DNA of 64,000 bases from Rhizomicrobium sp. Its GTDB lineage: Bacteria > Pseudomonadota > Alphaproteobacteria > Micropepsales > Micropepsaceae. The position numbers and the translations under genes are program-made. How positions within the stretch are numbered: the first letter of the stretch is position 1; each line of letters begins with the position of its first letter. The DNA is taken from positions 15,306 to 79,305 of the forward strand of contig DASZYI010000144.1 in the NCBI GenBank assembly GCA_035545475.1. The letters are read 5' to 3'. The notes beneath the pieces were generated by a model. That model did not search any database and was not told the origin of the DNA. It saw only the letters and a list, made by a program, of their open reading frames with translations. Below, piece after piece: positions 30,428 to 48,617 of the stretch.

Positions 30428-32656
30428 TTACATCTTATACCCAGCTCGGACTCCGATGACGCGGGGAGCATTTGCGATAACGAATACGTTCATGCCCGCC
30501 CCCGGATTCCCCGGATATTCGCGTTCGGCGACATACGCGTTCGTAAGATTTGTTCCGAATATTCCAAAAGACCAGACGCCGCCTTCTGGTTGATACATCA
30601 AAGAAGCATTCAGCAACGTGACTGGTGCTTGACTGATGTCCGGCTCATTCAATGCCGTGAAATAACGACGGCCGGCGAAGCTCACATTTACTGCAGGCGA
30701 TAATGTGCCCGAGTCGATGTGCCAATCGTATTGTGCGCCGACATTGAAGGTTATCGGCGCCGATGCCGGAAGCCGGTTGCCACGCAGCGGTTGCGCCGGC
30801 CCGCCTCGCAAGGAATCCACCTGCTCTCCCCGCAAGAAATGCGCGTCGAGAAACATGACTCCGGCATTCACGCTGAGGTCATCGGTAATCAGGGCATTTC
30901 CCTGGAGTTCGACGCCTTTCACAAGTGCAGATGCCGCGTTCTCGATAAGAACCTGGGCGGCGACATTCACATTTACCTGGAGGTCGGTGTAGTCATAGTT
31001 GAAGGCGCTCACGTTCAGCTGAACGCGGTTATCCCAAAACTCCGTCTTTGCACCAATTTCGTAGGCGGTGATTTTTTCGGGATTATACGGAGTGTTTTGC
31101 CCCAGATCACCGATATTGTAACCGCCGCTCTTAAACCCTTTGGACCATGATGCATACAACATCACTCCGTTGATCGGGCGGTACTTCAAGAGCGCGCGCG
31201 GGGTGAAGGAGTAAAATGTTTTGTCCGGAAGGGTGGTTATATTCGCAGTGTCGGGCGAGCCGATTCCCGACAAATCAAGAAGGCTGTTCTGCATGCCACC
31301 CTTTATTTCAACGCTATAACGCGCGCCGAAAGTGACATCGAGATTGTCCAGCAAAGAGTAGGTTGCGTCGCCGAAGGCTGCATAGGCGTTGGTCTTGTTT
31401 ACGCCGCCCAGGCGAAGAGGAGCAAGAACAGGCGGTATCGCGGTCCCCAATAGGAGTTGATGCTCGATGTCCTGACCTGCTTCATCTTGAAAATAATAAA
31501 AACCGGCCAAGCCATGGAACTTCTCGCCGTTGTAGAGGATCTGCAGTTCCTGGCTATATTGATCGGCGATTTCCTCGTCGAACTGAGCGGAAAGATACAC
31601 ATCGCTGGCGTCGAAATCGGAGCCATTGTGTTGCCCGGTGTGCCGATAGCCGGACAACGAGCGGAAAGTAAGTTCGTTGTTGATGGTCCAATCCAGAGTG
31701 GAAGATAGGCCATAAATCAGCGGCTGGTTTGCGTAGTATTGATCGGAATAATAAATCCGACGTCCCGGTCCAACGCCACGGCCACCATAGACAGTTACCC
31801 CCACAAGATCCTGGTCGGAAGTGAGGCCGACGAAATCGCCGAACGCGGCATGGTCATTGGCGTAATAAACATCGCCTTCGACATTCCATACCACATCGCT
31901 GCTCAAATCGGTGGCAACGCGCAATCTTGCAGAGATATCGTGCCGGTCACCTTCCGGCGAAGTGTTGTTGGAAGGATCGATGCGGGTGAAATAACCGCCA
32001 TGATCTTCCTTTGCTATTGCCAGTCTTGCCCGGATCTTTCCATCGTCGAACGGCGCATTTGCGACAACAGTTTCCTTTCCGCCCCAGGCGCCACCGTCGC
32101 CATTGTCAGAGATACGTGAGTACTCGGCAGACAAATTGAGCTCGTACCGATCGGTGGGCGCATTCGTGATCACGTTCACTGCACCAGCCGTCGCGTTTCT
32201 GCCGTAAAGCGTACCTTGAGGGCCTTCAACGACTTCTACCCGGTCTACATCCAGGAAGGCGCCGACAAGACCGCTGGGATGAGCGACATAAAATCCGTCG
32301 ATACTGGCCGCGATCGGCGATTCGAACGTACCTTGTGTAATCCCCGCATTGATACCGCGGATGTTGAGCTGAACGATTGCGCGCCCCTCGGCAACAGTCA
32401 GCCCGGGTGCCAGCGCGGGAAGATCACCGAAGCTCGAGATGTGATAGGCTTCCAATTGTTTTGCGGTAATCGCAGATACGCTCGCGGGAACGTCTTGTAC
32501 GTTTTCGGTGCGCTTTTGGGCCGTAACCACGACCGTTTCGATGCCTTCCACGGTTGGTGCGTCCTGCGCACACGCGGGAAGTGCTGATCCAAGCGAACCA
32601 ATACTGATTATTCCAGACGCCAAGCCAATGGATGCAGCCAATTTTCCTGCCTTCAT
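30428..32656 (-). CDS. TonB-dependent receptor 1
   Basis: Signal peptide, ETVVVTAQKR, RVEVVEGPQGTLYGRNATAGAVN, C-terminal beta-strand; GGGGAGG SD. Confidence 0.93.
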   Translation of the reverse strand: MKAGKLAASIGLASGIISIGSLGSALPACAQDAPTVEGIETVVVTAQKRTENVQDVPASVSAITAKQLEAYHISSFGDLPALAPGLTVAEGRAIVQLNIRGINAGITQGTFESPIAASIDGFYVAHPSGLVGAFLDVDRVEVVEGPQGTLYGRNATAGAVNVITNAPTDRYELNLSAEYSRISDNGDGGAWGGKETVVANAPFDDGKIRARLAIAKEDHGGYFTRIDPSNNTSPEGDRHDISARLRVATDLSSDVVWNVEGDVYYANDHAAFGDFVGLTSDQDLVGVTVYGGRGVGPGRRIYYSDQYYANQPLIYGLSSTLDWTINNELTFRSLSGYRHTGQHNGSDFDASDVYLSAQFDEEIADQYSQELQILYNGEKFHGLAGFYYFQDEAGQDIEHQLLLGTAIPPVLAPLRLGGVNKTNAYAAFGDATYSLLDNLDVTFGARYSVEIKGGMQNSLLDLSGIGSPDTANITTLPDKTFYSFTPRALLKYRPINGVMLYASWSKGFKSGGYNIGDLGQNTPYNPEKITAYEIGAKTEFWDNRVQLNVSAFNYDYTDLQVNVNVAAQVLIENAASALVKGVELQGNALITDDLSVNAGVMFLDAHFLRGEQVDSLRGGPAQPLRGNRLPASAPITFNVGAQYDWHIDSGTLSPAVNVSFAGRRYFTALNEPDISQAPVTLLNASLMYQPEGGVWSFGIFGTNLTNAYVAEREYPGNPGAGMNVFVIANAPRVIGVRAGYKM

Positions 32657-32715
32657 GACAACCTCCCCTGCGTACATGGCATCGCGCCTGTTCGCTTTTG
32701 GTGACGCTATTGTTA

Positions 32716-32762
32716 TGCGCTCAATTATGATGAAATTTGATCGCGTTTTCCGGCGTTGTCAA
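32716..32762 (-). promoter_or_regulatory. Degenerate operator A (TGCGCTCAA-N12-TTGATCGCG) overlapping the -10 region of a TTGACA promoter for the TBDR1 operon
   Basis: 6/9 and 6/9 match to TCCGATCTA-N12-TAGATCGGA; same 12-nt spacer and nearly the same distance to TTGACA as at 36890. Confidence 0.5.
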
Positions 32763-32872
32763 CGGTCACCCCAGATATAAATACCCAAATTTGCGACTTA
32801 CAGGGTGCAGCACCTTAACTGCCACAAGACCTTAACGGTCAGGCATATCCAGAACGATTGCGATTTCCTGGC

Positions 32873-33652
32873 TCATTTGGCGGTGCTGCCCCCATCAATA
32901 GTGAGGACCGTGCCGGTGCAATAAGATGCTTCTTCGGACGCCAGGTAGAGGCAACCATAAGCAATCTCCAACGCAGATGCGGCCCGCCCCAATGGAATTG
33001 CCCTATAGGCTTTTCGCGGATCGTCGAAATATGAGCGTTGAGCACCCAGCATCGGCGTATCGATTGCACCTGGCGCTACCACATTCGCCCGGATGCCATC
33101 CCGCGCGTAGGTGACTGCGATCGAGCGCGTAAGATTGATGACGCCGGCCTTGGCAGCGGTATACGTATGGGCGGCTTCGAGGCCCTGGAAACCAAGGATG
33201 CTGGCGACGTTTACGATCGCACCGCCACCGTTGTTTCTCATCTGAATGATAGCAGCACGATTTACCTGGTAGCAGCCGTCCAGATTGATCCGGATGATCT
33301 CGCGCCACTTTTCCGCGGAGGTTTCGGCAATGCCATTCATCGAGCCGGGGCTTTTCTCTGCCCAACTGAAGCCGACCGCGGCAGCGTGAACGAGCACATC
33401 AAGCCTGCCGAACAAACCTGCGGTCACTGCAACTACGTCTTCGGCCGCGCCATCGACGCTGATATCCGCACTTGATACTTTTGCGCAGCCGCCAGCGTCT
33501 TCTATCAAACCTTTTGTCTCCTCAAGCGTTGCGACGGTGCGCCCAACAAGCATGATCTTTGCGCCTTCGCGCGCGAACAATTTGGATACTTCGCGTCCGA
33601 CTCCGGACCCGGCACCGGTAACAAAAGCCACTTTTCCGTCGAGCCTACCCAC
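32873..33652 (-). CDS. Short-chain dehydrogenase/reductase
   Basis: VTGAGSGVG, NVASI, YTAAKAG, ANVVAPG; GTG start overlapping the P450 stop. Confidence 0.92.
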   Translation of the reverse strand: MGRLDGKVAFVTGAGSGVGREVSKLFAREGAKIMLVGRTVATLEETKGLIEDAGGCAKVSSADISVDGAAEDVVAVTAGLFGRLDVLVHAAAVGFSWAEKSPGSMNGIAETSAEKWREIIRINLDGCYQVNRAAIIQMRNNGGGAIVNVASILGFQGLEAAHTYTAAKAGVINLTRSIAVTYARDGIRANVVAPGAIDTPMLGAQRSYFDDPRKAYRAIPLGRAASALEIAYGCLYLASEEASYCTGTVLTIDGGSTAK

Positions 33653-34935
33653 TATTCGCTTCCCGCCCGCTCCGCATGCCCGGCGGCCACTCGGGGCGAA
33701 AAACGAACGTTCATTGCCGTGTAGCGAACAAGGGTGTGAAGCGGCCAATACTCAAATTGGTCCTGTAAAATCTCGATTTCAAAACGCTCGAAAGCCTGGC
33801 GGATGAAAATGCCAAGTTCCATCTTGGCCAACATCATGCCGATGCAAATATGCGCGCCGTGGCCAAAGGTTTTTGCTTGAATGGCATTCTTCCTATCTAT
33901 TCGAATGCTGCATGGTTCATCAAAAATGGCGGGGTCGGTGTTCGCTGCCATCAAACCGAGATAGACCAAATCGCCTTTCTTCAAATTCTGGGAATGCCAT
34001 TCGAAATCTTCGGCAACGATCCTGGTTTGCGCCACAGTCACGCCTGGATATCTCCAGAGCTCCGTAAGCGTCTTGTCGAAATCAGCCTGCGGCCCGCGCA
34101 CAGCCCCAACAAGTTCGGGCCGTCGAGCGATCCAATTGACGAAGATCGCGCTTGTCGACGCCGTGCTATCGAAGCCGCCGGCAACCAATATGATGACGGC
34201 CGCAAGCAGTTCCTCGTGTGTCAGCCTTTTCTCCGCGTCCCTCGCCAGTACAAGCGCCGTCAAAAGGTCGGAACTCAGCTGCTCCTTGGGGGTTGCTTCG
34301 ATTTTGGCGATGAAGCTGCTTAGCAGTTCGAAGAATTCCGCCAGTTTTCGTTCAAGCGAAGCAATGACTGTCAACGATGGCGCCTGCATTCCCTGAAAAT
34401 GGACGAAGAGAGACGAGAGATCGGTGAGGTTTTGCCAGTAAGAGTCGGGCAGACCAAGAATCCGCAATGTGACAAGCCCCGGCAAGCGATACGCGATATC
34501 CATAAAATCGAATTCGCGCATGTTCTCGCACTCGTCGAGCAGCTCTGTGACGACTTGTGCAGTCACAACCCGCATCCGATCGATTACCGGCTTTGAGAAG
34601 GCCTTTACGATGAGGGGCCTGATACGCGCATGGTCGAGCCCGTCAAGATTGTTGATGGTTGTCGGCATAAAACGAAAAACCAGCGGATATCGGTCGGCTT
34701 CCGTGCTGGCTTCCGTCGACGCGGCATCGTTGCGTTGTGAGGAGAGGCGTCGATCCATAAAGCCGGCAATGACGTCGTCATATGTCGTCACCATCCAGGC
34801 CTTCTGGATGGTGCTCCAGAATATGGGGCTGTGTTCACGGACCCGCGCAAAGCTTCCCCACGGATCGCGGAGCGCTTCCTGAGAGACAATCATAAAATCG
34901 GGGTCGAGCTTCGCTTCAACGATCGAGACGCTCAT
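33652..34935 (-). CDS. Cytochrome P450
   Basis: DHARIR, I-helix AGGFDST, ELWR (ExxR), FGHGAHICIG heme-Cys motif. Confidence 0.93.
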   Translation of the reverse strand: MSVSIVEAKLDPDFMIVSQEALRDPWGSFARVREHSPIFWSTIQKAWMVTTYDDVIAGFMDRRLSSQRNDAASTEASTEADRYPLVFRFMPTTINNLDGLDHARIRPLIVKAFSKPVIDRMRVVTAQVVTELLDECENMREFDFMDIAYRLPGLVTLRILGLPDSYWQNLTDLSSLFVHFQGMQAPSLTVIASLERKLAEFFELLSSFIAKIEATPKEQLSSDLLTALVLARDAEKRLTHEELLAAVIILVAGGFDSTASTSAIFVNWIARRPELVGAVRGPQADFDKTLTELWRYPGVTVAQTRIVAEDFEWHSQNLKKGDLVYLGLMAANTDPAIFDEPCSIRIDRKNAIQAKTFGHGAHICIGMMLAKMELGIFIRQAFERFEIEILQDQFEYWPLHTLVRYTAMNVRFSPRVAAGHAERAGSE

Positions 34936-35067
34936 ATAGCCTCCCTGATTGCGTTTACCGAGCTATCATCAGCCGGGACTCACCGGCTGCGGGCATTGGT
35001 TTGGGTGCGTTGACGTGCCGAAAACCTCAGCCGCTGTCCGACAGCCTGGGCTCGGCAACGCAACTCC

Positions 35068-36801
35068 TCATTCTGCCGCTAGCAAATCGTCTCCCCGATC
35101 GCGTCGTCCGCCGCCGTGACGCAGAAGATCGCCGGAATGGGTGTTTGTTTCCTTGTCGTCGCGGATGGTCACTTCGCCGTTTACAAGAATGAAGCGATAG
35201 CCGGAGGCGCGCTGAATCCTGCGCCATTCGCCGCCCGGTTGATCGCGCGCGATCTCATCGTCCACCACATGAAGCTTTTCATAGTCGTAAACAACGACGT
35301 CGGCCGGCGCCCCCTCAACCAACGTACCCCGCTCGCGGAAGCCGGCAACCAGTGCAGGAAGCGTGGACAACCGCCAATGCGCTTCTTCCAAGGAAATTAC
35401 GTCGTTTTCCCGAACAAAGCGGACAATCGTTTCGGTGGGGAATCTTCCACCTGTCAGGAACCGCGTATGCGCACCGCCGTCCGAGACGCCGAAGATCACA
35501 AACGGGTCCTGCACGATCTCTTTCAAGTACTTCAGGTTGTTGCGCGCGCGGTCGCCCTGGAATTCGGTTTGAAGATCTTCCTCGACGGCAATATCCAGCA
35601 TCACATCGACCGGATGTTTGCCCGTTTCTTTCGCGATATGTGCGAGCGTGTAATCCCGCCACTTCTCGTTTTTCTCGGTTTTGGGTCCGATAAGAACAAT
35701 TTCTCCAAACACCGGAATGACCGTCTTTGGCACCTCGCGCAAAGCTGCGCGTCTGGCTGGATCCGCCATCTTCGCCTTGCGCTCTTCGAACGTTCCAAGT
35801 GTGGCATCCTTCCACGCCTCGGAGTCATCGAACATGTTCCACTCGTCCAGCTTAAACATCCACGGCGCGGCGACTGTATCGCCCTGGCCGACTACGCGAA
35901 TGCCACGATCGCGACAACTTTTCAGCCACGCCAGCGTATCGCGATGAATGGAAGCATCTGAATCGTTCCATCCAACGACATTCATCACCACAGGCCGTCC
36001 CGAAACAGTGGCCAGATCTTCTATATGCTTGCGATCATGACCCGGATCGGGTGACAACAACGTCATCTGGATAAAGCCGTCATTGCGCTTGCGCAGCACT
36101 TTGGCCATCTCGATCGCCGTTTCGTCATGCATCACGTCGGTGACCATAGGCGTACCGTCGTGGTCGTTCTGCTGGCCGCCTGGATTTCCAGGAACCAGGC
36201 GCTGGGCCGACCACCCGCATGCGCCGGCATCCATTGCTTGATTGAGAAGGCGCCCCATTTCCGCATGTTCGGCGGGCGTAGGCATTCTGCCGGCCTTTGC
36301 ATCCTTCAGGCCCATAACCCAGATCATCAAAGGACCGAGCGGCACGTAGGGAAGGATATTCACCGATTTCGGTGTGCGTTCGATGGAGTCGAGAAACTCC
36401 GGAAAAGTGACCCAATCCCAAGGCATGCCCGCCTTCATCGCGGCAAGCGGTATGGCTTCGACCCGGGTCATGGAGAGCATCGCATATTCACGCTCTTCAG
36501 GCTTCACGGGCGCAAAGCCGAAGCCACAATTCCCGATCACAACGGACGTGACACCGTGCCAGCCGGAGATCGTGCAATACGGGTCCCAAAAGACTTGGGA
36601 ATCGTAATGCGTGTGCAGATCCACGAAACCAGGCGCAACGATCAGGCCTGAAGCATCGAGAATTTCGCCGGCGTCGCTTTCATCGATGCTGCCGATCTTG
36701 GCGATCAGACCGTTGCTTATGCCGATGTCGCCACGGAACCGCGGCTGCCGCGTGCCGTCAACAATGATGCCGTTTTTGATTACGCGATCGTATTTCGCCA
36801 C
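35068..36801 (-). CDS. Amidohydrolase, N-acyl-D-amino-acid deacylase-like
   Basis: PGFVDLHTHYD, HGVTSVVIGNCG, SDGGAH, GAPADVVVYD. Confidence 0.9.
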   Translation of the reverse strand: MAKYDRVIKNGIIVDGTRQPRFRGDIGISNGLIAKIGSIDESDAGEILDASGLIVAPGFVDLHTHYDSQVFWDPYCTISGWHGVTSVVIGNCGFGFAPVKPEEREYAMLSMTRVEAIPLAAMKAGMPWDWVTFPEFLDSIERTPKSVNILPYVPLGPLMIWVMGLKDAKAGRMPTPAEHAEMGRLLNQAMDAGACGWSAQRLVPGNPGGQQNDHDGTPMVTDVMHDETAIEMAKVLRKRNDGFIQMTLLSPDPGHDRKHIEDLATVSGRPVVMNVVGWNDSDASIHRDTLAWLKSCRDRGIRVVGQGDTVAAPWMFKLDEWNMFDDSEAWKDATLGTFEERKAKMADPARRAALREVPKTVIPVFGEIVLIGPKTEKNEKWRDYTLAHIAKETGKHPVDVMLDIAVEEDLQTEFQGDRARNNLKYLKEIVQDPFVIFGVSDGGAHTRFLTGGRFPTETIVRFVRENDVISLEEAHWRLSTLPALVAGFRERGTLVEGAPADVVVYDYEKLHVVDDEIARDQPGGEWRRIQRASGYRFILVNGEVTIRDDKETNTHSGDLLRHGGGRRDRGDDLLAAE

Positions 36802-36886
36802 TTGCTTGTCCTCCCAATGCGGAGCCGCTCCTGCGCCTCCTAGCCTTTGGCGGGGCGCCAGCTTTTGCTTGGTTTGCCGGCAAAAT

Positions 36887-36935
36887 TTTTCCGACCTATT
36901 TATAAGAAAATAGATCGGAAAATATGAGGTGTCAA
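36887..36935 (-). promoter_or_regulatory. Operator A (TCCGACCTA-N12-TAGATCGGA) overlapping promoter TTGACA-N17-TATTTT of the deacylase-P450-SDR operon
   Basis: 14/15-bp inverted repeat 36887-36901/36908-36922; minus-strand TTGACA at 36935-36930. Confidence 0.75.
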
Positions 36936-37057
36936 GGAGGGAAGAATCATTGTAAGTCCTCTGCGGACAATCTGAGATTGGGATTCACGGGTCTGGTAAT
37001 GAGCTTGGCATATGCAAGCGGTAAGGCTAATTTCTAGGCGCGCAGCCCGGATCTCAA

Positions 37058-37642
37058 ATGCTAAAAAGACCCGCCAAAACAAAGACTCTCAGCCGGAGTC
37101 CGAAACGCGCCGCTGCCAGTTCGTCGCGCCCCAAAGCCAAATCGGTTCCGCAATACACTTTCGTACGGGAGACGTCGGCACCGAAGGCGCTGGCGTTGGA
37201 CGAACTCGATTACAACATCCTTTCGGCGCTGCGCGAAAACGGAAGAATGCAGAACACGACAATGGCCGAAGAATTTGGCGTTTCAGAACTCACCATTGCC
37301 ACACGTCTTCGACGCCTGACGGAAAACGGCGTTGTCAGGGCGACGGCACAGTGGGATTTCGCTTCGCTCGGATATCAGGAAGTCATGTTCGTCGACATCT
37401 ACGTGCGCGATCGACTTGTCGAAGACGTCGCAGCGGACATCGGCAAACTGGAAGATTCGATAGTGATATTGGGATTGGTGGGGGAGCCCCAACTCAAGGT
37501 AATGGTTGCTGCACGGGATTTTCAGCACCGGCACGATCTGCTTTTCGGCTCCATTGCAAAAATTCCCGGCATATCGAGAACGGACATTACGATTTGTCTC
37601 GACATCGAGAAATGGCGGGCTGATTACGTTCTCGTGCTATGA
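37058..37642 (+). CDS. Lrp/AsnC-family regulator 1
   Basis: LDELDYNILSALRENGR...FGVSELTIATRLRRL HTH plus RAM-like C-terminal domain. Confidence 0.88.
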   Translation: MLKRPAKTKTLSRSPKRAAASSSRPKAKSVPQYTFVRETSAPKALALDELDYNILSALRENGRMQNTTMAEEFGVSELTIATRLRRLTENGVVRATAQWDFASLGYQEVMFVDIYVRDRLVEDVAADIGKLEDSIVILGLVGEPQLKVMVAARDFQHRHDLLFGSIAKIPGISRTDITICLDIEKWRADYVLVL

Positions 37643-38103
37643 AGAAGATATCAGAGCTAGACCACAAAATCGTTCAAGCCCTCTCCCAAGACGCTAGAAA
37701 AAGCAATCGGGAAATCGCGCGGGAAATCGGCATTTCTGACACCTACGTCAGAAAACGGCTGCTTCGCTTGCAGGAAAACGGCGCCATCCGCATCGGCAGC
37801 GTGAGTGCGATCTTGAATCTTGGCTTGAATTTTGTTGCTGAGGTCATGGTCGCAGTTCGACCCAGCGGCGTTTCCGATTTCATCGCGCTGGCCAGCAAAA
37901 TCGAAGGCATCACCTTGATTGCGAAAATCAGCGGCAAATATGACGTTCTGCTATCGGTGACAGTCCGCAACATAGAGGAATTCGAAGGCATACTCGCCAA
38001 TCAAATCCGATCGCATCCCGATGTCCTGGACATCGCCTATCACATCGTGAAGACCGTTTATAAGCATCGCTCAGACATCGCAGCCATTCGCGAACCCAAG
38101 TAG
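37639..38103 (+). CDS. Lrp/AsnC-family regulator 2
   Basis: SELDHKIVQALSQDARKSNREIAREIGIS...RKRLLRL, SGKYDVLL; ATGA-coupled to regulator 1. Confidence 0.9.
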   Translation: MKKISELDHKIVQALSQDARKSNREIAREIGISDTYVRKRLLRLQENGAIRIGSVSAILNLGLNFVAEVMVAVRPSGVSDFIALASKIEGITLIAKISGKYDVLLSVTVRNIEEFEGILANQIRSHPDVLDIAYHIVKTVYKHRSDIAAIREPK

Positions 38104-38136
38104 GCAGACAACAGGACGCGCGGGGAGGACTTCTCT

Positions 38137-39033
38137 TTACCCGCGAACTTTCGGTACTCCCACCCGATAGACGGCCTCACCAGGGCGCAGCGCATGATCA
38201 ATGCGCAGCGACAGATTTGAGATCGCAGCACTATCTTCAATGTCGGCGTAAGCCACGTCAGGCTTCTTGGCGTTAGCGGCATAGGAATCCGCCCCCTGAC
38301 GGCGTTGCGGTCTCCTGGTCTTTTTGACGTCATCACCGATAAACCGGAGCGTTAAACTGCGGCGGCGCATCCCGGCGGCCGTCGGAGCTCCGCCGTGCAG
38401 CGCATTGGAATGAAAAGCCAAAATATCGCCCCGTTTAATCGGCCAGGATACAATATCCCATTTGTCGCGCTCCTTTTCGATGTTTGGAAGACGCGGCAGG
38501 TCGTCTTCGGAGTACAGCGGAAGGGTATCGTCATCTATATCCATCGCGGTGCCGTTAAATATCTTACCCTTGAAAGACCCTCTAACGACGTCGAGCGAGT
38601 TTTCTTTTTTGAGATCGTCCAACGGAATCCAAAGGACCACGGATTTGGGACCCTCGAACGGATAATAGGATGAATCCTGATGCCAAGGCGTGCGCCTCGC
38701 GGCACCACCTTCCTTGAGCCATACCTGTTCTTCCAAGTACCAAACATCGTCGGAATCAAACAGCGCCGCCACAACTGCTGTTAACGGCGTTTCAAACAAC
38801 ATCTGCTGAAAGCTCGGCGCCGCGACGGAATTTCCCGTTGCTTGTAAAATCGTGGCGCCCAATTCAGGGTAAAACATCTCGGCAGATTTACCCGCGTTCT
38901 GCAATTTCCAAGTGAATGCGTCTTCGACAACCTGCATATGCTGTGGAGCCAAAGCCTGCTCCAAAAACACCACACCATCGCGAAGAAATGGTTCGCGATG
39001 CGAGGCATATAGGCTTGCATTGCCCTGCTTCAT
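38137..39033 (-). CDS. Fe(II)/2-oxoglutarate dioxygenase, PhyH family
   Basis: TPWHQDSSY (HxD), distal H in ALHGG, RRSLTLRF. Confidence 0.9.
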   Translation of the reverse strand: MKQGNASLYASHREPFLRDGVVFLEQALAPQHMQVVEDAFTWKLQNAGKSAEMFYPELGATILQATGNSVAAPSFQQMLFETPLTAVVAALFDSDDVWYLEEQVWLKEGGAARRTPWHQDSSYYPFEGPKSVVLWIPLDDLKKENSLDVVRGSFKGKIFNGTAMDIDDDTLPLYSEDDLPRLPNIEKERDKWDIVSWPIKRGDILAFHSNALHGGAPTAAGMRRRSLTLRFIGDDVKKTRRPQRRQGADSYAANAKKPDVAYADIEDSAAISNLSLRIDHALRPGEAVYRVGVPKVRG

Positions 39034-39110
39034 AAGAATTCTCCCCGATCGCAGTGTTTGTACCGTCCAAAATCGACTTATTTCATCAGATTAATATCAA
39101 AGATTTTCAT

Positions 39111-39155
39111 TTGTCCATTGTTATCCGATCTAATATACTATTTTTAGATCGGATA
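39111..39155 (+). promoter_or_regulatory. Promoter TTGTCC-N17-TATACT enclosed by perfect operator A (TATCCGATCTAA-N10-TTAGATCGGATA)
   Basis: 12-bp perfect inverted repeat 39122-39133/39144-39155 with the -10 hexamer in its spacer. Confidence 0.8.
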
Positions 39156-39160
39156 CTGCG

Positions 39161-39934
39161 ATGGCATCCATGGGGCTTCTGAACAATCGGGTGATATTGA
39201 TCACCGGCACGAGCTCCGGCATTGGTCGAGCATCAGCAATACGTTGCGCGGCGGAAGGCGCCATTGTCGTGGCGACATCGCGACGAGAAGAGCGCGGCAG
39301 TCTGTTGGTGGACGAAATCCAATCGTCTGGCGGAAAAGCTCGATTCATTCGGGCAGATCTATCTGATCCAAATAGCCTCGATGAGCTCTTTGCCCTGGTC
39401 AGCAACGATTATGGACGGTTGGACGGCGCATTCAACAATGCAGGTATTAGAGGCAATCCACACGCCGTTGCAGATTTCCCGGTGGGAGAATTCGATGCCG
39501 TCTTCGACACCAACGTGCGGGGAACCTGGTTGTGTATGCGGCATGAGATGAAAATGATGCGCCAGCAGGGACACGGCGCAATTGTGAATACATCATCAAT
39601 CGCAGGGCTCGTGGCCGTTCCAGACTCGTCGGTTTATGTCGCTGCAAAGCATGCGGTTATCGGAATGACAAAGGCAGCGAGCCTCGATGCCGCCGCTCTT
39701 CCGATCCGTGTAAACTGCATTGCGCCTGGCGTCGTCTATTCAGAGATGCTTGAAGAATGGCTTCAGGGTTTACCCGAAGCGGATAGAGATCCAGGAAAAA
39801 TCTTGCCCATTCCCATGAAGCGCGCCGGAAACCCAGAAGAAATCGCGTCGTTGGCAGTTTGGCTACTCTCGGATGAAACCAGCTATATGACAGGCGCCGT
39901 TGTGGTTGCGGATGGTGGTCTGACGGTTTCATAG
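39161..39934 (+). CDS. Short-chain dehydrogenase/reductase
   Basis: ITGTSSGIG, AFNNAG, NTSS, YVAAKHA, VNCIAPG. Confidence 0.92.
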   Translation: MASMGLLNNRVILITGTSSGIGRASAIRCAAEGAIVVATSRREERGSLLVDEIQSSGGKARFIRADLSDPNSLDELFALVSNDYGRLDGAFNNAGIRGNPHAVADFPVGEFDAVFDTNVRGTWLCMRHEMKMMRQQGHGAIVNTSSIAGLVAVPDSSVYVAAKHAVIGMTKAASLDAAALPIRVNCIAPGVVYSEMLEEWLQGLPEADRDPGKILPIPMKRAGNPEEIASLAVWLLSDETSYMTGAVVVADGGLTVS

Positions 39935-40020: not shown

Positions 40021-40362
40021 CGCCGATTTTGTTGAAGAAGTCGCGCATGGGTCGAGTGGGGTGACGCGGCCTGCGATGTGCCGAGCGGATTGGGCTGTGT
40101 TTGTTAGGATCAGTTTGGCATTGGCTGTGGGTTGGGGATCAGCTTTGCCAGTTTCCTGAGGTTCTGGGCGGTTGCGGCAAGCAGGAACTCATCGCGGGCA
40201 CCGCAAGGCCCTCGCAATCGCAGCCGGCCCAACCGCAGGATGCGTTTGAGATGGGCGAACAGCATCTCGACCTTCTTCCGTTCGCGACGTGAGACTATGT
40301 AGGCATCTGTCCTGGCGATCTCGCGGGCTACGTCGCGAGCGCCTTCGTAGATGCTGCGAGGC
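40021..40362 (-). mobile_element. IS1182-family remnant: transposase C-terminus plus right end
   Basis: RRERKKVEMLFAHLKRILRLGRLRLRGPCGARDEFLLAATAQNLRKLAK; terminal ACTTCTTCAACAAAATCGGC on the minus strand. Confidence 0.8.
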
Positions 40363-40531
40363 AAAAAGCTGCTTAGCGCCACCCCTTGGTACGAGCTAGC
40401 TCTGTGGAAGTTGCCGCCTCCCCGCTACAGTCCACCGATCACGAGGAAAATCCGTCGCCTAGCTCAATTCGGCTTGATGCTCCGTAAGGGGCAGGTCCGA
40501 ATATCGGTGCGGCAACCGAGACCAGCATGGC

Positions 40532-41917: not shown

Positions 41918-41965
41918 TAGAGAGCTCCTCCGGAGGCTTCGGCCCGCGATCTCAGGGCTCGAGCT

Positions 41966-41985
41966 TTATTACTGACCTGCCAAAA
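41966..41985. promoter_or_regulatory. Operator B copy upstream of Rieske 1 (TTATTACTG-AC-CTGCCAAAA)
   Basis: Matches consensus TTTTKRCAG-N2-CTGYMAAAA. Confidence 0.55.
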
Positions 41986-42119
41986 AGATACAGCGGAGAC
42001 TTTGATTTCGCAAGCAAGTCCGCTGCTTCGCGAAAACCCCTATACATAGGCCCCACAAGCAAAGAACGCCCTCTTCGCCCAGAGTGGCGGTCGCGTGCCC
42101 GTGCTCAAACATGTCGACT

Positions 42120-42337
42120 TTATGATACATCTGCCAAATTATTTTCTTGCGGCGGCGCAGCAGTGATCGAGCGCGCTGCCGCGCCCTTTATACGGCTTAA
42201 GGTTGATATTTCTATTTTTTCCCGTGTTTCCTGGGTCGATTTTGACCCTTTTACATCGAAAGCAACCCAGTTTGACCGGACTGCAAGGTGTGTCAGGCAC
42301 GATGTTGTAATTTGACTTTATGGCGTTTCTGTCAAAA
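42120..42337. promoter_or_regulatory. Two weaker operator B copies upstream of TBDR2 (42120-42139 and 42318-42337)
   Basis: TTATGATAC-AT-CTGCCAAAT; TTATGGCGT-TT-CTGTCAAAA. Confidence 0.45.
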
Positions 42338-45463: not shown

Positions 45464-46189
45464 CTACCGTCCTCTACGGCGTCGGGATCCGTCTTTCTTC
45501 GAAATAGCGGCGCCCAAAACCTTATCCCCCTCGAGAGTTCCAACGAGGACCTTTAGGAAAGCAAGTAATTCGCCTTCGCGGTCCTGTGCGTTGTATGATA
45601 ACCCTCGCTGCATAGCGAAGCCTTCCAAAAGAAATCGGAATATGTCCCGCCGCAAATTGAACCAGGGCGCCGACTTCTGTTCTTCGGTGAAGCTTATGAG
45701 GGAGAGTTCCCTCCTTGCGCGATCGTATTCGGCAAGCGCCGGCTCGAAAATTGACGAAAGATCATCGTCGGTATGCGCAGCGATCAGCAATTCCGTGAAT
45801 GCCGCGAAGGCATTTGTCTGAAGATGCTTCCACGCCAAATCCACAATTGTGATTGGGTCGAATATCTTCTGCTCGATGACATCCTTGACGTACATGTCCA
45901 GGCGGCATCTCATGATTTGATACACGGTCCCTTCAATAAGAGAGCTACGAGACGGAAAGTGATAAAGCATTGCTGTGCGAGTTAGCCCTGCGCGCAAAGC
46001 AACTGTGCTGGTAGTCGTGCCAGCATAGCCAGTTTCCGCAAGGCAATCGATCGCCGCGTTCAATATGCGCAACCGCGTCTTGCTACTCTTCGAGAGTTCG
46101 CCTTTGGCTATGCGGGTTGGATCAGGTAGGTGAAGAACGATCGCGTTTTTTTCCTCCCTATCCTTCTTTTTTGATTTTCGCCTGACCAT
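45464..46189 (-). CDS. TetR/AcrR-family regulator (start uncertain)
   Basis: TRLRILNAAIDCLAETGYAGTTTSTVALRAGLTRTAMLYHFPSR. Confidence 0.9.
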   Translation of the reverse strand: MVRRKSKKKDREEKNAIVLHLPDPTRIAKGELSKSSKTRLRILNAAIDCLAETGYAGTTTSTVALRAGLTRTAMLYHFPSRSSLIEGTVYQIMRCRLDMYVKDVIEQKIFDPITIVDLAWKHLQTNAFAAFTELLIAAHTDDDLSSIFEPALAEYDRARRELSLISFTEEQKSAPWFNLRRDIFRFLLEGFAMQRGLSYNAQDREGELLAFLKVLVGTLEGDKVLGAAISKKDGSRRRRGR

Positions 46190-46283
46190 TCCCCCACACC
46201 CTAAGAGCAACAGTTGAAGCTAGTTGGTAACGGCCCCTATGAAAAGACCGAATTCAACCTCTTGGCCAGGTGCTTGGTTCGTT

Positions 46284-48503: not shown

Positions 48504-48617
48504 TTTTGGCAAATTTGCTATATTTCCAAAATGCCAGACGTTGCTGCGCCGCAATAAGCCTCTGGGAAGGCTCCGGGCAGCTTTTGCCTTGACCAGATTT
48601 TTACAGACCTGTACAAA
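48504..48617. promoter_or_regulatory. Divergent MFS/acoA control region: operator B copies at 48504-48523 and 48598-48617; promoter TTGACC-N17-TACAAA (48589-48617)
   Basis: TTTTTACAG-AC-CTGTACAAA is an 8/9 palindrome overlapping the -10; TTTTGGCAA-AT-TTGCTATAT is a weaker copy. Confidence 0.65.

Follow-up and report, generated by a model that had tools for sequence, protein, structure and literature searches.

This work concerns a 64-kb stretch of DNA (64,000 nucleotides of contig DASZYI010000144.1) from a Rhizomicrobium species. The whole of this stretch is referred to as the window, and coordinates are counted from its first base. The element analyzed is a long palindrome, named Operator A, which is a real and sharply defined dyad present in two copies, each located over a predicted core promoter. 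The copies, sites 1 and 2, lie on either side of two adjacent genes that encode proteins of the Lrp/AsnC family, Lrp1 and Lrp2. An operator role of sites 1 and 2 is well supported by the analysis of sequences presented here. We see about an even chance that Operator A serves a small local regulon as its repressor operator and that it is bound by the adjacent Lrp1 and Lrp2, probably as two heterodimers located two helical turns apart.

Two copies of a long palindrome

The two strong sites are the following.

36890-36919, no strand: Operator A site 1, TCCGACCTA-tttataagaaaa-TAGATCGGA, N12 spacer, one mismatch to a perfect dyad
39124-39153, no strand: Operator A site 2, TCCGATCTA-atatactatttt-TAGATCGGA, N12 spacer, perfect dyad

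An earlier reading of the letters alone (the sequence-only reading) had placed near-perfect palindromes at 36890-36919 and 39124-39153. These coordinates proved to be exact, with one and zero mismatches, respectively. When up to three mismatches were allowed, sites 1 and 2 were the sole matches in the 64-kb window; the number expected by chance is 0.03, and two or more matches were found in none of 100 shuffles. A weight matrix was built from the Operator A arms and used to scan the window with arm spacings of 10 to 14. It gave scores of 32.5 and 30.4 bits for the two strong sites, and of 14.1 for the next best position in the window.

The symmetry extends beyond the 9-bp arms. At site 1 the extended dyad spans positions 36887-36922 (TTTTCCGACCTATTT / AAATAGATCGGAAAA; 15-bp arms, 6-bp centre, one mismatch) and at site 2 it spans positions 39122-39155 (TATCCGATCTAA / TTAGATCGGATA; 12-bp arms, 10-bp centre). 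The centres of the arms are 21 bp apart at both sites. The claim that the two sites have the same 12-nt AT-rich spacer holds for its length and for its A+T content (11 of the 12 bases in each case) and fails for its sequence, as only one of the 12 positions is identical.

In public genomes the motif is at chance level: exact and relaxed scans of 185,579 species genomes and of JGI metagenomes gave 3, 2 and 3 matches. None of these was informative as a homologous site. Several of the relaxed-scan matches, in genomes of 28-32% G+C, have the form of a hairpin followed by a T-run.

The sites lie over promoter-like sequences between divergent genes

The open reading frames (ORFs) of the window were assigned to families by Pfam. 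Those surrounding the two sites, together with the promoter-like sequences detected by a consensus scan, are listed here.

32873..36801, minus strand: presumed site 1 target operon, amidohydrolase-P450-SDR (short-chain dehydrogenase, SDR)
32873-33748, minus strand: SDR, in the presumed site 1 target operon
33652-34935, minus strand: cytochrome P450, in the presumed site 1 target operon
35068-36801, minus strand: amidohydrolase_3, in the presumed site 1 target operon
36907..36935, minus strand: promoter-like TTGACA-17-TATTTT, before the amidohydrolase-P450-SDR operon
37058-37642, plus strand: Lrp1, Lrp/AsnC-family regulator of 194 aa, also compared with NCBIfam and the PDB and by AlphaFold2 (AF2) and Foldseek
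37639-38103, plus strand: Lrp2, Lrp/AsnC-family regulator of 154 aa, compared in the same ways
38137-39033, minus strand: PhyH-family dioxygenase, divergent from the following SDR gene
39111..39139, plus strand: promoter-like TTGTCC-17-TATACT, before the SDR gene
39161-39934, plus strand: SDR, presumed site 2 target, start codon 8 nt past the operator

Both sites are located between divergent gene starts. Site 1 lies within the 256-bp intergenic region that separates the amidohydrolase gene from the Lrp1 gene, about 90 nt from the start of the former and about 140 nt from that of the latter. Site 2 is present in the next divergent region, 1 kb beyond the Lrp2 gene.

The consensus scan, which covered the region from 36.7 to 39.3 kb, gave just two promoter-like matches, and each of them overlaps one dyad. 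Both arrangements that had been read from the letters were reproduced by it. At 39.1 kb, the -10 hexamer of TTGTCC-N17-TATACT (39134-39139) lies within the spacer of site 2. At 36.9 kb, site 1 covers the -10 hexamer of a TTGACA promoter, TATTTT (36912-36907), which is partly in the right arm and partly in the spacer. Relative to the predicted transcription starts, the operators cover about positions -19 to +10 and -22 to +8, and such positions would be classical for repression by occlusion.

Two further observations concern promoters in this region. The sequence TTGTCCA (39111-39118), which contains the plus-strand -35 hexamer of the SDR gene, reads TGGACA on the other strand and is there followed after 16 nt by ATTAAT. 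The TGGACA hexamer (39118-39113) abuts site 2 and is the likely -35 hexamer of the PhyH-family dioxygenase gene. Site 2 is possibly adjoined by divergent back-to-back promoters that have their -35 region in common.

Another palindrome, CTTGGCATATGCAAG, occurs once in the window, at positions 37004-37018, 40 nt before the start of Lrp1. The region 37005..37033 contains TTGGCA with TAATTT 17 nt downstream; it resembles a promoter for the Lrp1 gene, and both hexamers are conserved in the related contig L006 described below. We considered CTTGGCATATGCAAG as a true Lrp box and rejected it: the window has a single copy, its right half is altered in L006, and TTGGCA is more simply explained as the -35 hexamer of Lrp1.

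Site 1 is conserved in a related contig

Contigs related to the locus were found among public sequences. L006, a Logan contig from another study, has these genes too, with a nucleotide identity of 79-90%, and the gene order of the presumed site 1 target operon is the same in it. L006-L009 belong to the same species-level lineage, and L004/L005/L096 and L095 represent two more distant lineages, known from short contigs.

The intergenic DNA between the amidohydrolase and Lrp1 genes is 72% identical between the window and L006. The identity is unevenly distributed: in the region 36882-36961, which includes the operator, TTGACA and the DNA downstream, 12-14 of the 16 positions of each block are identical, and in the flanking blocks 6-9 of 16 are. 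Site 1 appears in this alignment as a conserved island amid diverged intergenic DNA. Its -35 and -10 hexamers are both unchanged in L006. The site itself reads TCCGATCTA-tttcaagaaaaa-TAGTTCGGA in L006, and the differences are confined to the central 4-6 bp of the spacer and to one arm position. At this position, arm position 6, the left arm of the window carries a C, and in L006 it is the right arm that shows the mirror change, so that the position seems tolerant of substitution. The changes are not compensatory, which is unlike what an RNA stem requires.

Site 2 is identical in L008 and was spanned without any difference by contigs of three separate runs (X1-X3); the L006 contig reaches no further than the first bases of the site. 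Public contigs were also aligned to the sites in search of variants or further copies, and this gave identical contigs and low-coverage unitig breaks only.

Contigs L004, L005 and L096, which come from three assemblers, share an end point about 92 nt before the Lrp1 gene of the L004 type. A candidate common half-site in L004, "TTCCG", was rejected: it has three copies in 35 bp, and the genomes concerned contain this 5-mer about 4-5 times per kb. In L004, the DNA between the divergent glyoxalase and AMP-ligase genes contains TTTCCG-N9-CGGAAA and a third TTTCCG, which is not significant given the frequency of the word. These observations on L004 concern its positions 1-25 and 2190-2230.

Lrp1 and Lrp2 are full-length Lrp/AsnC-family proteins

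Sequence and predicted fold assign Lrp1 and Lrp2 to the Lrp/AsnC family, with an N-terminal winged helix-turn-helix (HTH) domain and a C-terminal RAM domain (beta-alpha-beta-beta-alpha-beta). Both domains are complete: the proteins match the Pfam families HTH_AsnC-type and AsnC_trans_reg, and align over their full length to PH0140, FL11 and AsnC. By sequence, profile and predicted fold, the best solved relatives are PH0140, FL11 (including its DNA complex), AsnC, Lrp, NMB0573 and AldR, and sirohaem decarboxylases rank below the DNA-binding feast/famine regulatory proteins (FFRPs). When AF2 models were used as queries in Foldseek, the top ~38 matches were all Lrp/AsnC regulators; these models are of moderate confidence (mean predicted local distance difference test score, pLDDT, of 62 and 73) and were taken for topology only. 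NCBIfam has no model that reaches its cut-off for Lrp1 or Lrp2, and for this reason no orthology is claimed for either protein. An exhaustive protein search had double-Lrp proteins of 300-350 aa as its top matches. Kinship to such fused Lrp/NirDL-type proteins was rejected, as their rank results from the summing of two stretches of 25-30% identity and the PDB and NCBIfam comparisons favour the DNA-binding FFRPs.

Lrp1 and Lrp2 are 29% identical to each other. The stop codon of the Lrp1 gene overlaps the start codon of the Lrp2 gene in the sequence ATGA (37639-37642), and this overlap is present in all four known loci (the window, L006, L004 and L095). Between the window and L006, the Lrp2 gene has 60 synonymous and no non-synonymous codon differences, and the Lrp1 gene has 47 and 11, respectively. 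The conserved overlap and the constraint on Lrp2 are consistent with obligate co-expression of a constrained complex. Lrp1 has an N-terminal tail of about 45 aa (37058-37195) that is basic, rich in K, R, P and S, and predicted to be disordered (pLDDT < 50). The homologues P0153 and P0154 have tails of similar length. Lrp1 as annotated on the window's own contig has 148 aa and lacks the tail.

A model for repression by the adjacent Lrp pair

The operator role that the sequence-only reading had proposed for three promoters is supported for two of them, where the dyads lie between divergent starts and over the predicted -10 region and start, and where site 1 is conserved in L006; the third promoter is treated below. 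Judged solely by position, the adjacent Lrp pair is the most likely binder and the best candidate.

We propose the following mechanism. A protein complex would hold both arms of a site from one side of the DNA, the centres of the arms being separated by two helical turns. The bound complex would occlude the -10 region and the start of two sigma-70-type promoters, those of the amidohydrolase-P450-SDR operon and of the SDR gene, the AT-rich centre of each site doubling as the -10 region. Lrp1 and Lrp2 would heterodimerize, and each heterodimer would read one asymmetric box of about 15 bp that consists of an arm and its flanking A/T. The 30-36-bp palindrome would arise from two such heterodimers placed symmetrically about a dyad in a tetramer or octamer. 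Repression may be relieved by a small molecule that binds the RAM domains and is probably related to the pathway substrate. The 14-bp boxes centred on the arms are self-complementary at 2, 4, 8 and 10 of their 14 positions. That these boxes are not palindromic argues against one homodimer per box and is consistent with a heterodimer.

Lrp-family boxes are semi-palindromes of 13-15 bp that have an AT-rich centre, are degenerate and occur in clusters (PMC2995911, PMC10201364), and neighbouring Lrp dimers can occupy one DNA face at intervals of two or three helical turns (PMC2995911). Operator A, with its dyad of 30-36 bp, does not correspond to a single box of this kind. Its 21-bp distance from centre to centre does correspond to the documented spacing of adjacent units, and each site is located in a control region, either that of the regulator's own gene or that of a target transcribed divergently. 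The boxes known from E. coli Lrp, Pyrococcus FL11, Sulfolobus Ss-LrpB and BarR resemble Operator A in having palindromic half-sites around an AT-rich centre, in being located in a control region that serves both the regulator gene and a catabolic operon transcribed in the opposite direction, and in having units two helical turns apart (PMC2995911, PMC10201364). They differ from the situation described here, which involves two different, translationally coupled Lrp genes and boxes of about 14 bp that are not palindromic. The sequence-only reading had held a long and specific palindrome to be unusual for the Lrp family; the literature agrees (PMC2995911, PMC10201364), yet a spacing of two or three turns between dimers is documented (PMC2995911). 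The 21-bp arm spacing can accordingly be read as two boxes of about 15 bp on one face of the helix, which would be less exotic than a single stretched site.

Several observations weigh against this model. Known Lrp/AsnC boxes measure 13-15 bp, are degenerate and occur in clusters of at least three, unlike the one sharp 30-36-bp dyad with 9-bp arms found here at each promoter. Operator A was not found near the distant Lrp pairs (L004/L005/L096 and L095; 53-67% identity), for which little flanking DNA is available. The Lrp pair is without a relative in 185,579 species genomes (GTDB representatives), and among 5.8 billion protein clusters its relatives are confined to these two other lineages. 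The pair forms an orphan lineage, with only three homologous lineages, and phylogenetic footprinting through its homologues gave no link between protein and site. The two promoter-like matches equal the number expected by chance (1.9 in shuffles) and by themselves provide no evidence; their coincidence with the dyads, together with the conservation in L006 of the hexamers at site 1, is notable. Finally, seven ORFs of the window are without family assignment.

Hetero-assemblies have been proposed in the Lrp family and are little documented (PMC2995911). We tentatively suggest that the coupled and 29%-identical Lrp/AsnC paralogues may be obligate heterodimers, that a dyad-related pair of these may recognize the sharp 30-36-bp palindrome, and that the conserved Lrp1 tail may occupy its AT-rich centre. 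Such a heteromeric, high-specificity mode of reading DNA is not described for the Lrp family and, if true, would be new to it. If the adjacent pair binds, the locus would offer a compact and testable case of heteromeric Lrp/AsnC proteins on a long sharp palindrome, and also a clean inducible promoter/operator pair from a TonB-receptor-linked oxidative catabolic island of an uncultured soil alphaproteobacterium.

Alternative explanations for the palindromes

The main alternative, a real possibility that we nevertheless consider rather unlikely, is that Operator A belongs to a different regulator: the TetR protein listed here, the product of an unassigned ORF, or a product encoded beyond the window.

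45464-46210, strand not given: TetR gene, within an MFS-SDR-TetR-CMD operon

Such a regulator could be a tetramer whose two DNA-binding dimers are kept at a distance of two turns, or it could bind the long palindrome as two TetR dimers; Operator A would then be a routine local operator. The 9-N12-9 geometry is in its favour, as it is not as described for Lrp boxes and is typical of NikR (PMC7055735) and FitAB/VapBC (PMC3378870), and so is the lack of the motif at the more distant Lrp-pair loci within the little DNA that flanks them. Another binder is conceivable also because of the unassigned ORFs and because the rest of the genome lies outside the window. Against it, both sites flank the Lrp pair, and the ORFs scanned revealed no gene for a ribbon-helix-helix (RHH), AbrB or other DNA-binding protein. 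TetR, the only other regulator found in the window, is encoded 6 kb away in another operon, near which palindromes of its own are present: GCAAATTTGC (48509-48518) and TACAGACCTGTA (48602-48613) are present where the MFS-SDR-TetR-CMD operon and E1/E2-like genes diverge, and are likely operators of the TetR protein.

The systems in which this geometry is known differ from the locus in other respects. The NikR operator, GTATGA-N16-TCATAC, is likewise a wide palindrome, its short specific arms separated by about two helical turns, and lies over a repressed promoter (PMC7055735). NikR is however an RHH tetramer, and with no such gene among the window ORFs scanned the likeness is one of geometry only. 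In FitAB/VapBC, two DNA-binding dimers each occupy one half-site of a long inverted repeat and are bridged by a second protein; as at the present locus, a translationally coupled two-gene module is combined with a long inverted repeat (PMC3378870). These are toxin-antitoxin systems with RHH or AbrB folds that act on their own promoter only, whereas the proteins considered here are Lrp/AsnC paralogues with catabolic targets. The FitAB site has an 8-N12-8 spacing. Long palindromes of about 28-30 bp, such as QacR IR1 and others of the TetR family, are bound by two dimers over the -10 region and start of the regulated promoter. The locus is unlike these in that the nearest TetR gene is the one 6 kb off, in the other operon with its own palindromes.

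It is improbable that the palindromes are RNA hairpins in 5' leaders that act on translation or stability, for instance by masking the AUG of the SDR gene together with its weak Shine-Dalgarno sequence. Transcripts of the complete palindromes would form stable hairpins (-13.7 to -23.4 kcal/mol, z = -4.5 to -7.8), and the extended fold of site 2 pairs with the AUG at 39161-39163. The predicted starts, however, lie within the palindromes and one arm alone would be transcribed; site 1, at its distances of ~90 and ~140 nt from the start codons, is unable to mask a ribosome-binding site; and the non-compensatory arm changes between the window and L006 do not fit a stem.

Very improbable, in our view, is a structural or mobile repeat without a regulatory role, whether REP-like, a recombination core site flanking Lrp1-Lrp2-PhyH, or a sequencing-adapter artefact. 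The two copies do lie 2.2 kb apart around three genes, and a transposase remnant is present nearby.

40110-40382, minus strand: transposase remnant, 90-aa ORF, matching the C-terminal end of a DDE transposase alone (PF13751, E = 4e-8)

Against a REP element or an intrinsic terminator, both copies are found at the 5' ends of genes, there is no T-run, no terminator call overlaps them, and the 64 kb contain two copies, with public genomes at chance level; the location between divergent gene starts excludes a role as terminator. A pair of tyrosine-recombinase core sites would be expected to have identical 6-8-bp centres and a recombinase nearby; the two spacers have only one of 12 positions in common, a divergence that partner sites would not tolerate, and no recombinase was found nearby among the annotated window ORFs. 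An adapter or assembly artefact is suggested by the breaks of low-coverage Logan unitigs at 36917/36918, by the end of the L006 contig at site 2, and by the arm ends TTCCGATCT / AGATCGGAA (36911-36922; 39122-39132 / 39145-39153), which we take to be identical to the last 8-9 nt of the Illumina TruSeq adapter ends. The identity stops after these 8-9 nt, and such an artefact is excluded by the three separate runs that span site 2 cleanly and by the point variants in L006. Adapter trimmers could clip reads at the arm ends.

A candidate third copy before a TonB-dependent receptor gene

The sequence-only reading had included a degenerate copy of the palindrome, before the gene of a TonB-dependent receptor.

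30428-32677, minus strand: TonB-dependent receptor gene (Pfam), possible target if site 3 is real
32716-32745, no strand: candidate degenerate site 3, TGCGCTCAA-ttatgatgaaat-TTGATCGCG, upstream of the TonB-dependent receptor gene

The arms of site 3 have six mismatches in 18 positions, and the window contains 16 sites with up to six mismatches, compared with 11.6 in shuffles. Its weight-matrix score is 4.2 bits, which ranks 18th among the N12 positions of the window. The features that do speak for this copy are its intergenic location, in a 195-bp gap upstream of the receptor gene, the presence of TTGACA 11 nt upstream of it (the corresponding distance at site 1 is 10 nt), and its conservation in L006, where the arms are identical at 18 of 18 positions and the spacer at 8 of 12. 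By sequence, site 3 is indistinguishable from chance; its context is mildly in favour, and we regard it as a possible candidate only. A promoter scan at site 3 gave nothing above threshold, and of the three promoters over which the palindrome had been proposed to lie, those at 36.9 and 39.1 kb are supported and the third is not.

Other features of the locus

The stretch from 22 to 54 kb has a G+C content of about 54%, compared with about 60% in its flanks. The transposase ORF at 40110-40382 appears to be an insertion sequence remnant within this catabolic island. The AdoHcyase gene, with 90% identity, puts the organism close to Rhizomicrobium/Micropepsaceae, within the Alphaproteobacteria. DNA of the locus is present in soil and rhizosphere metagenomes. 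Further genes follow the remnant.

Beyond the transposase remnant, strand not given: Rieske oxygenase, then a second TonB receptor (Pfam)

The 470-bp region between the Rieske oxygenase gene and the second TonB receptor gene contains three direct copies of a motif of about 23 nt, GACTTTATGATACATCTGCCAAA, at positions 41962-41984, 42116-42138 and 42314-42336. These copies may constitute a separate regulator-binding array.

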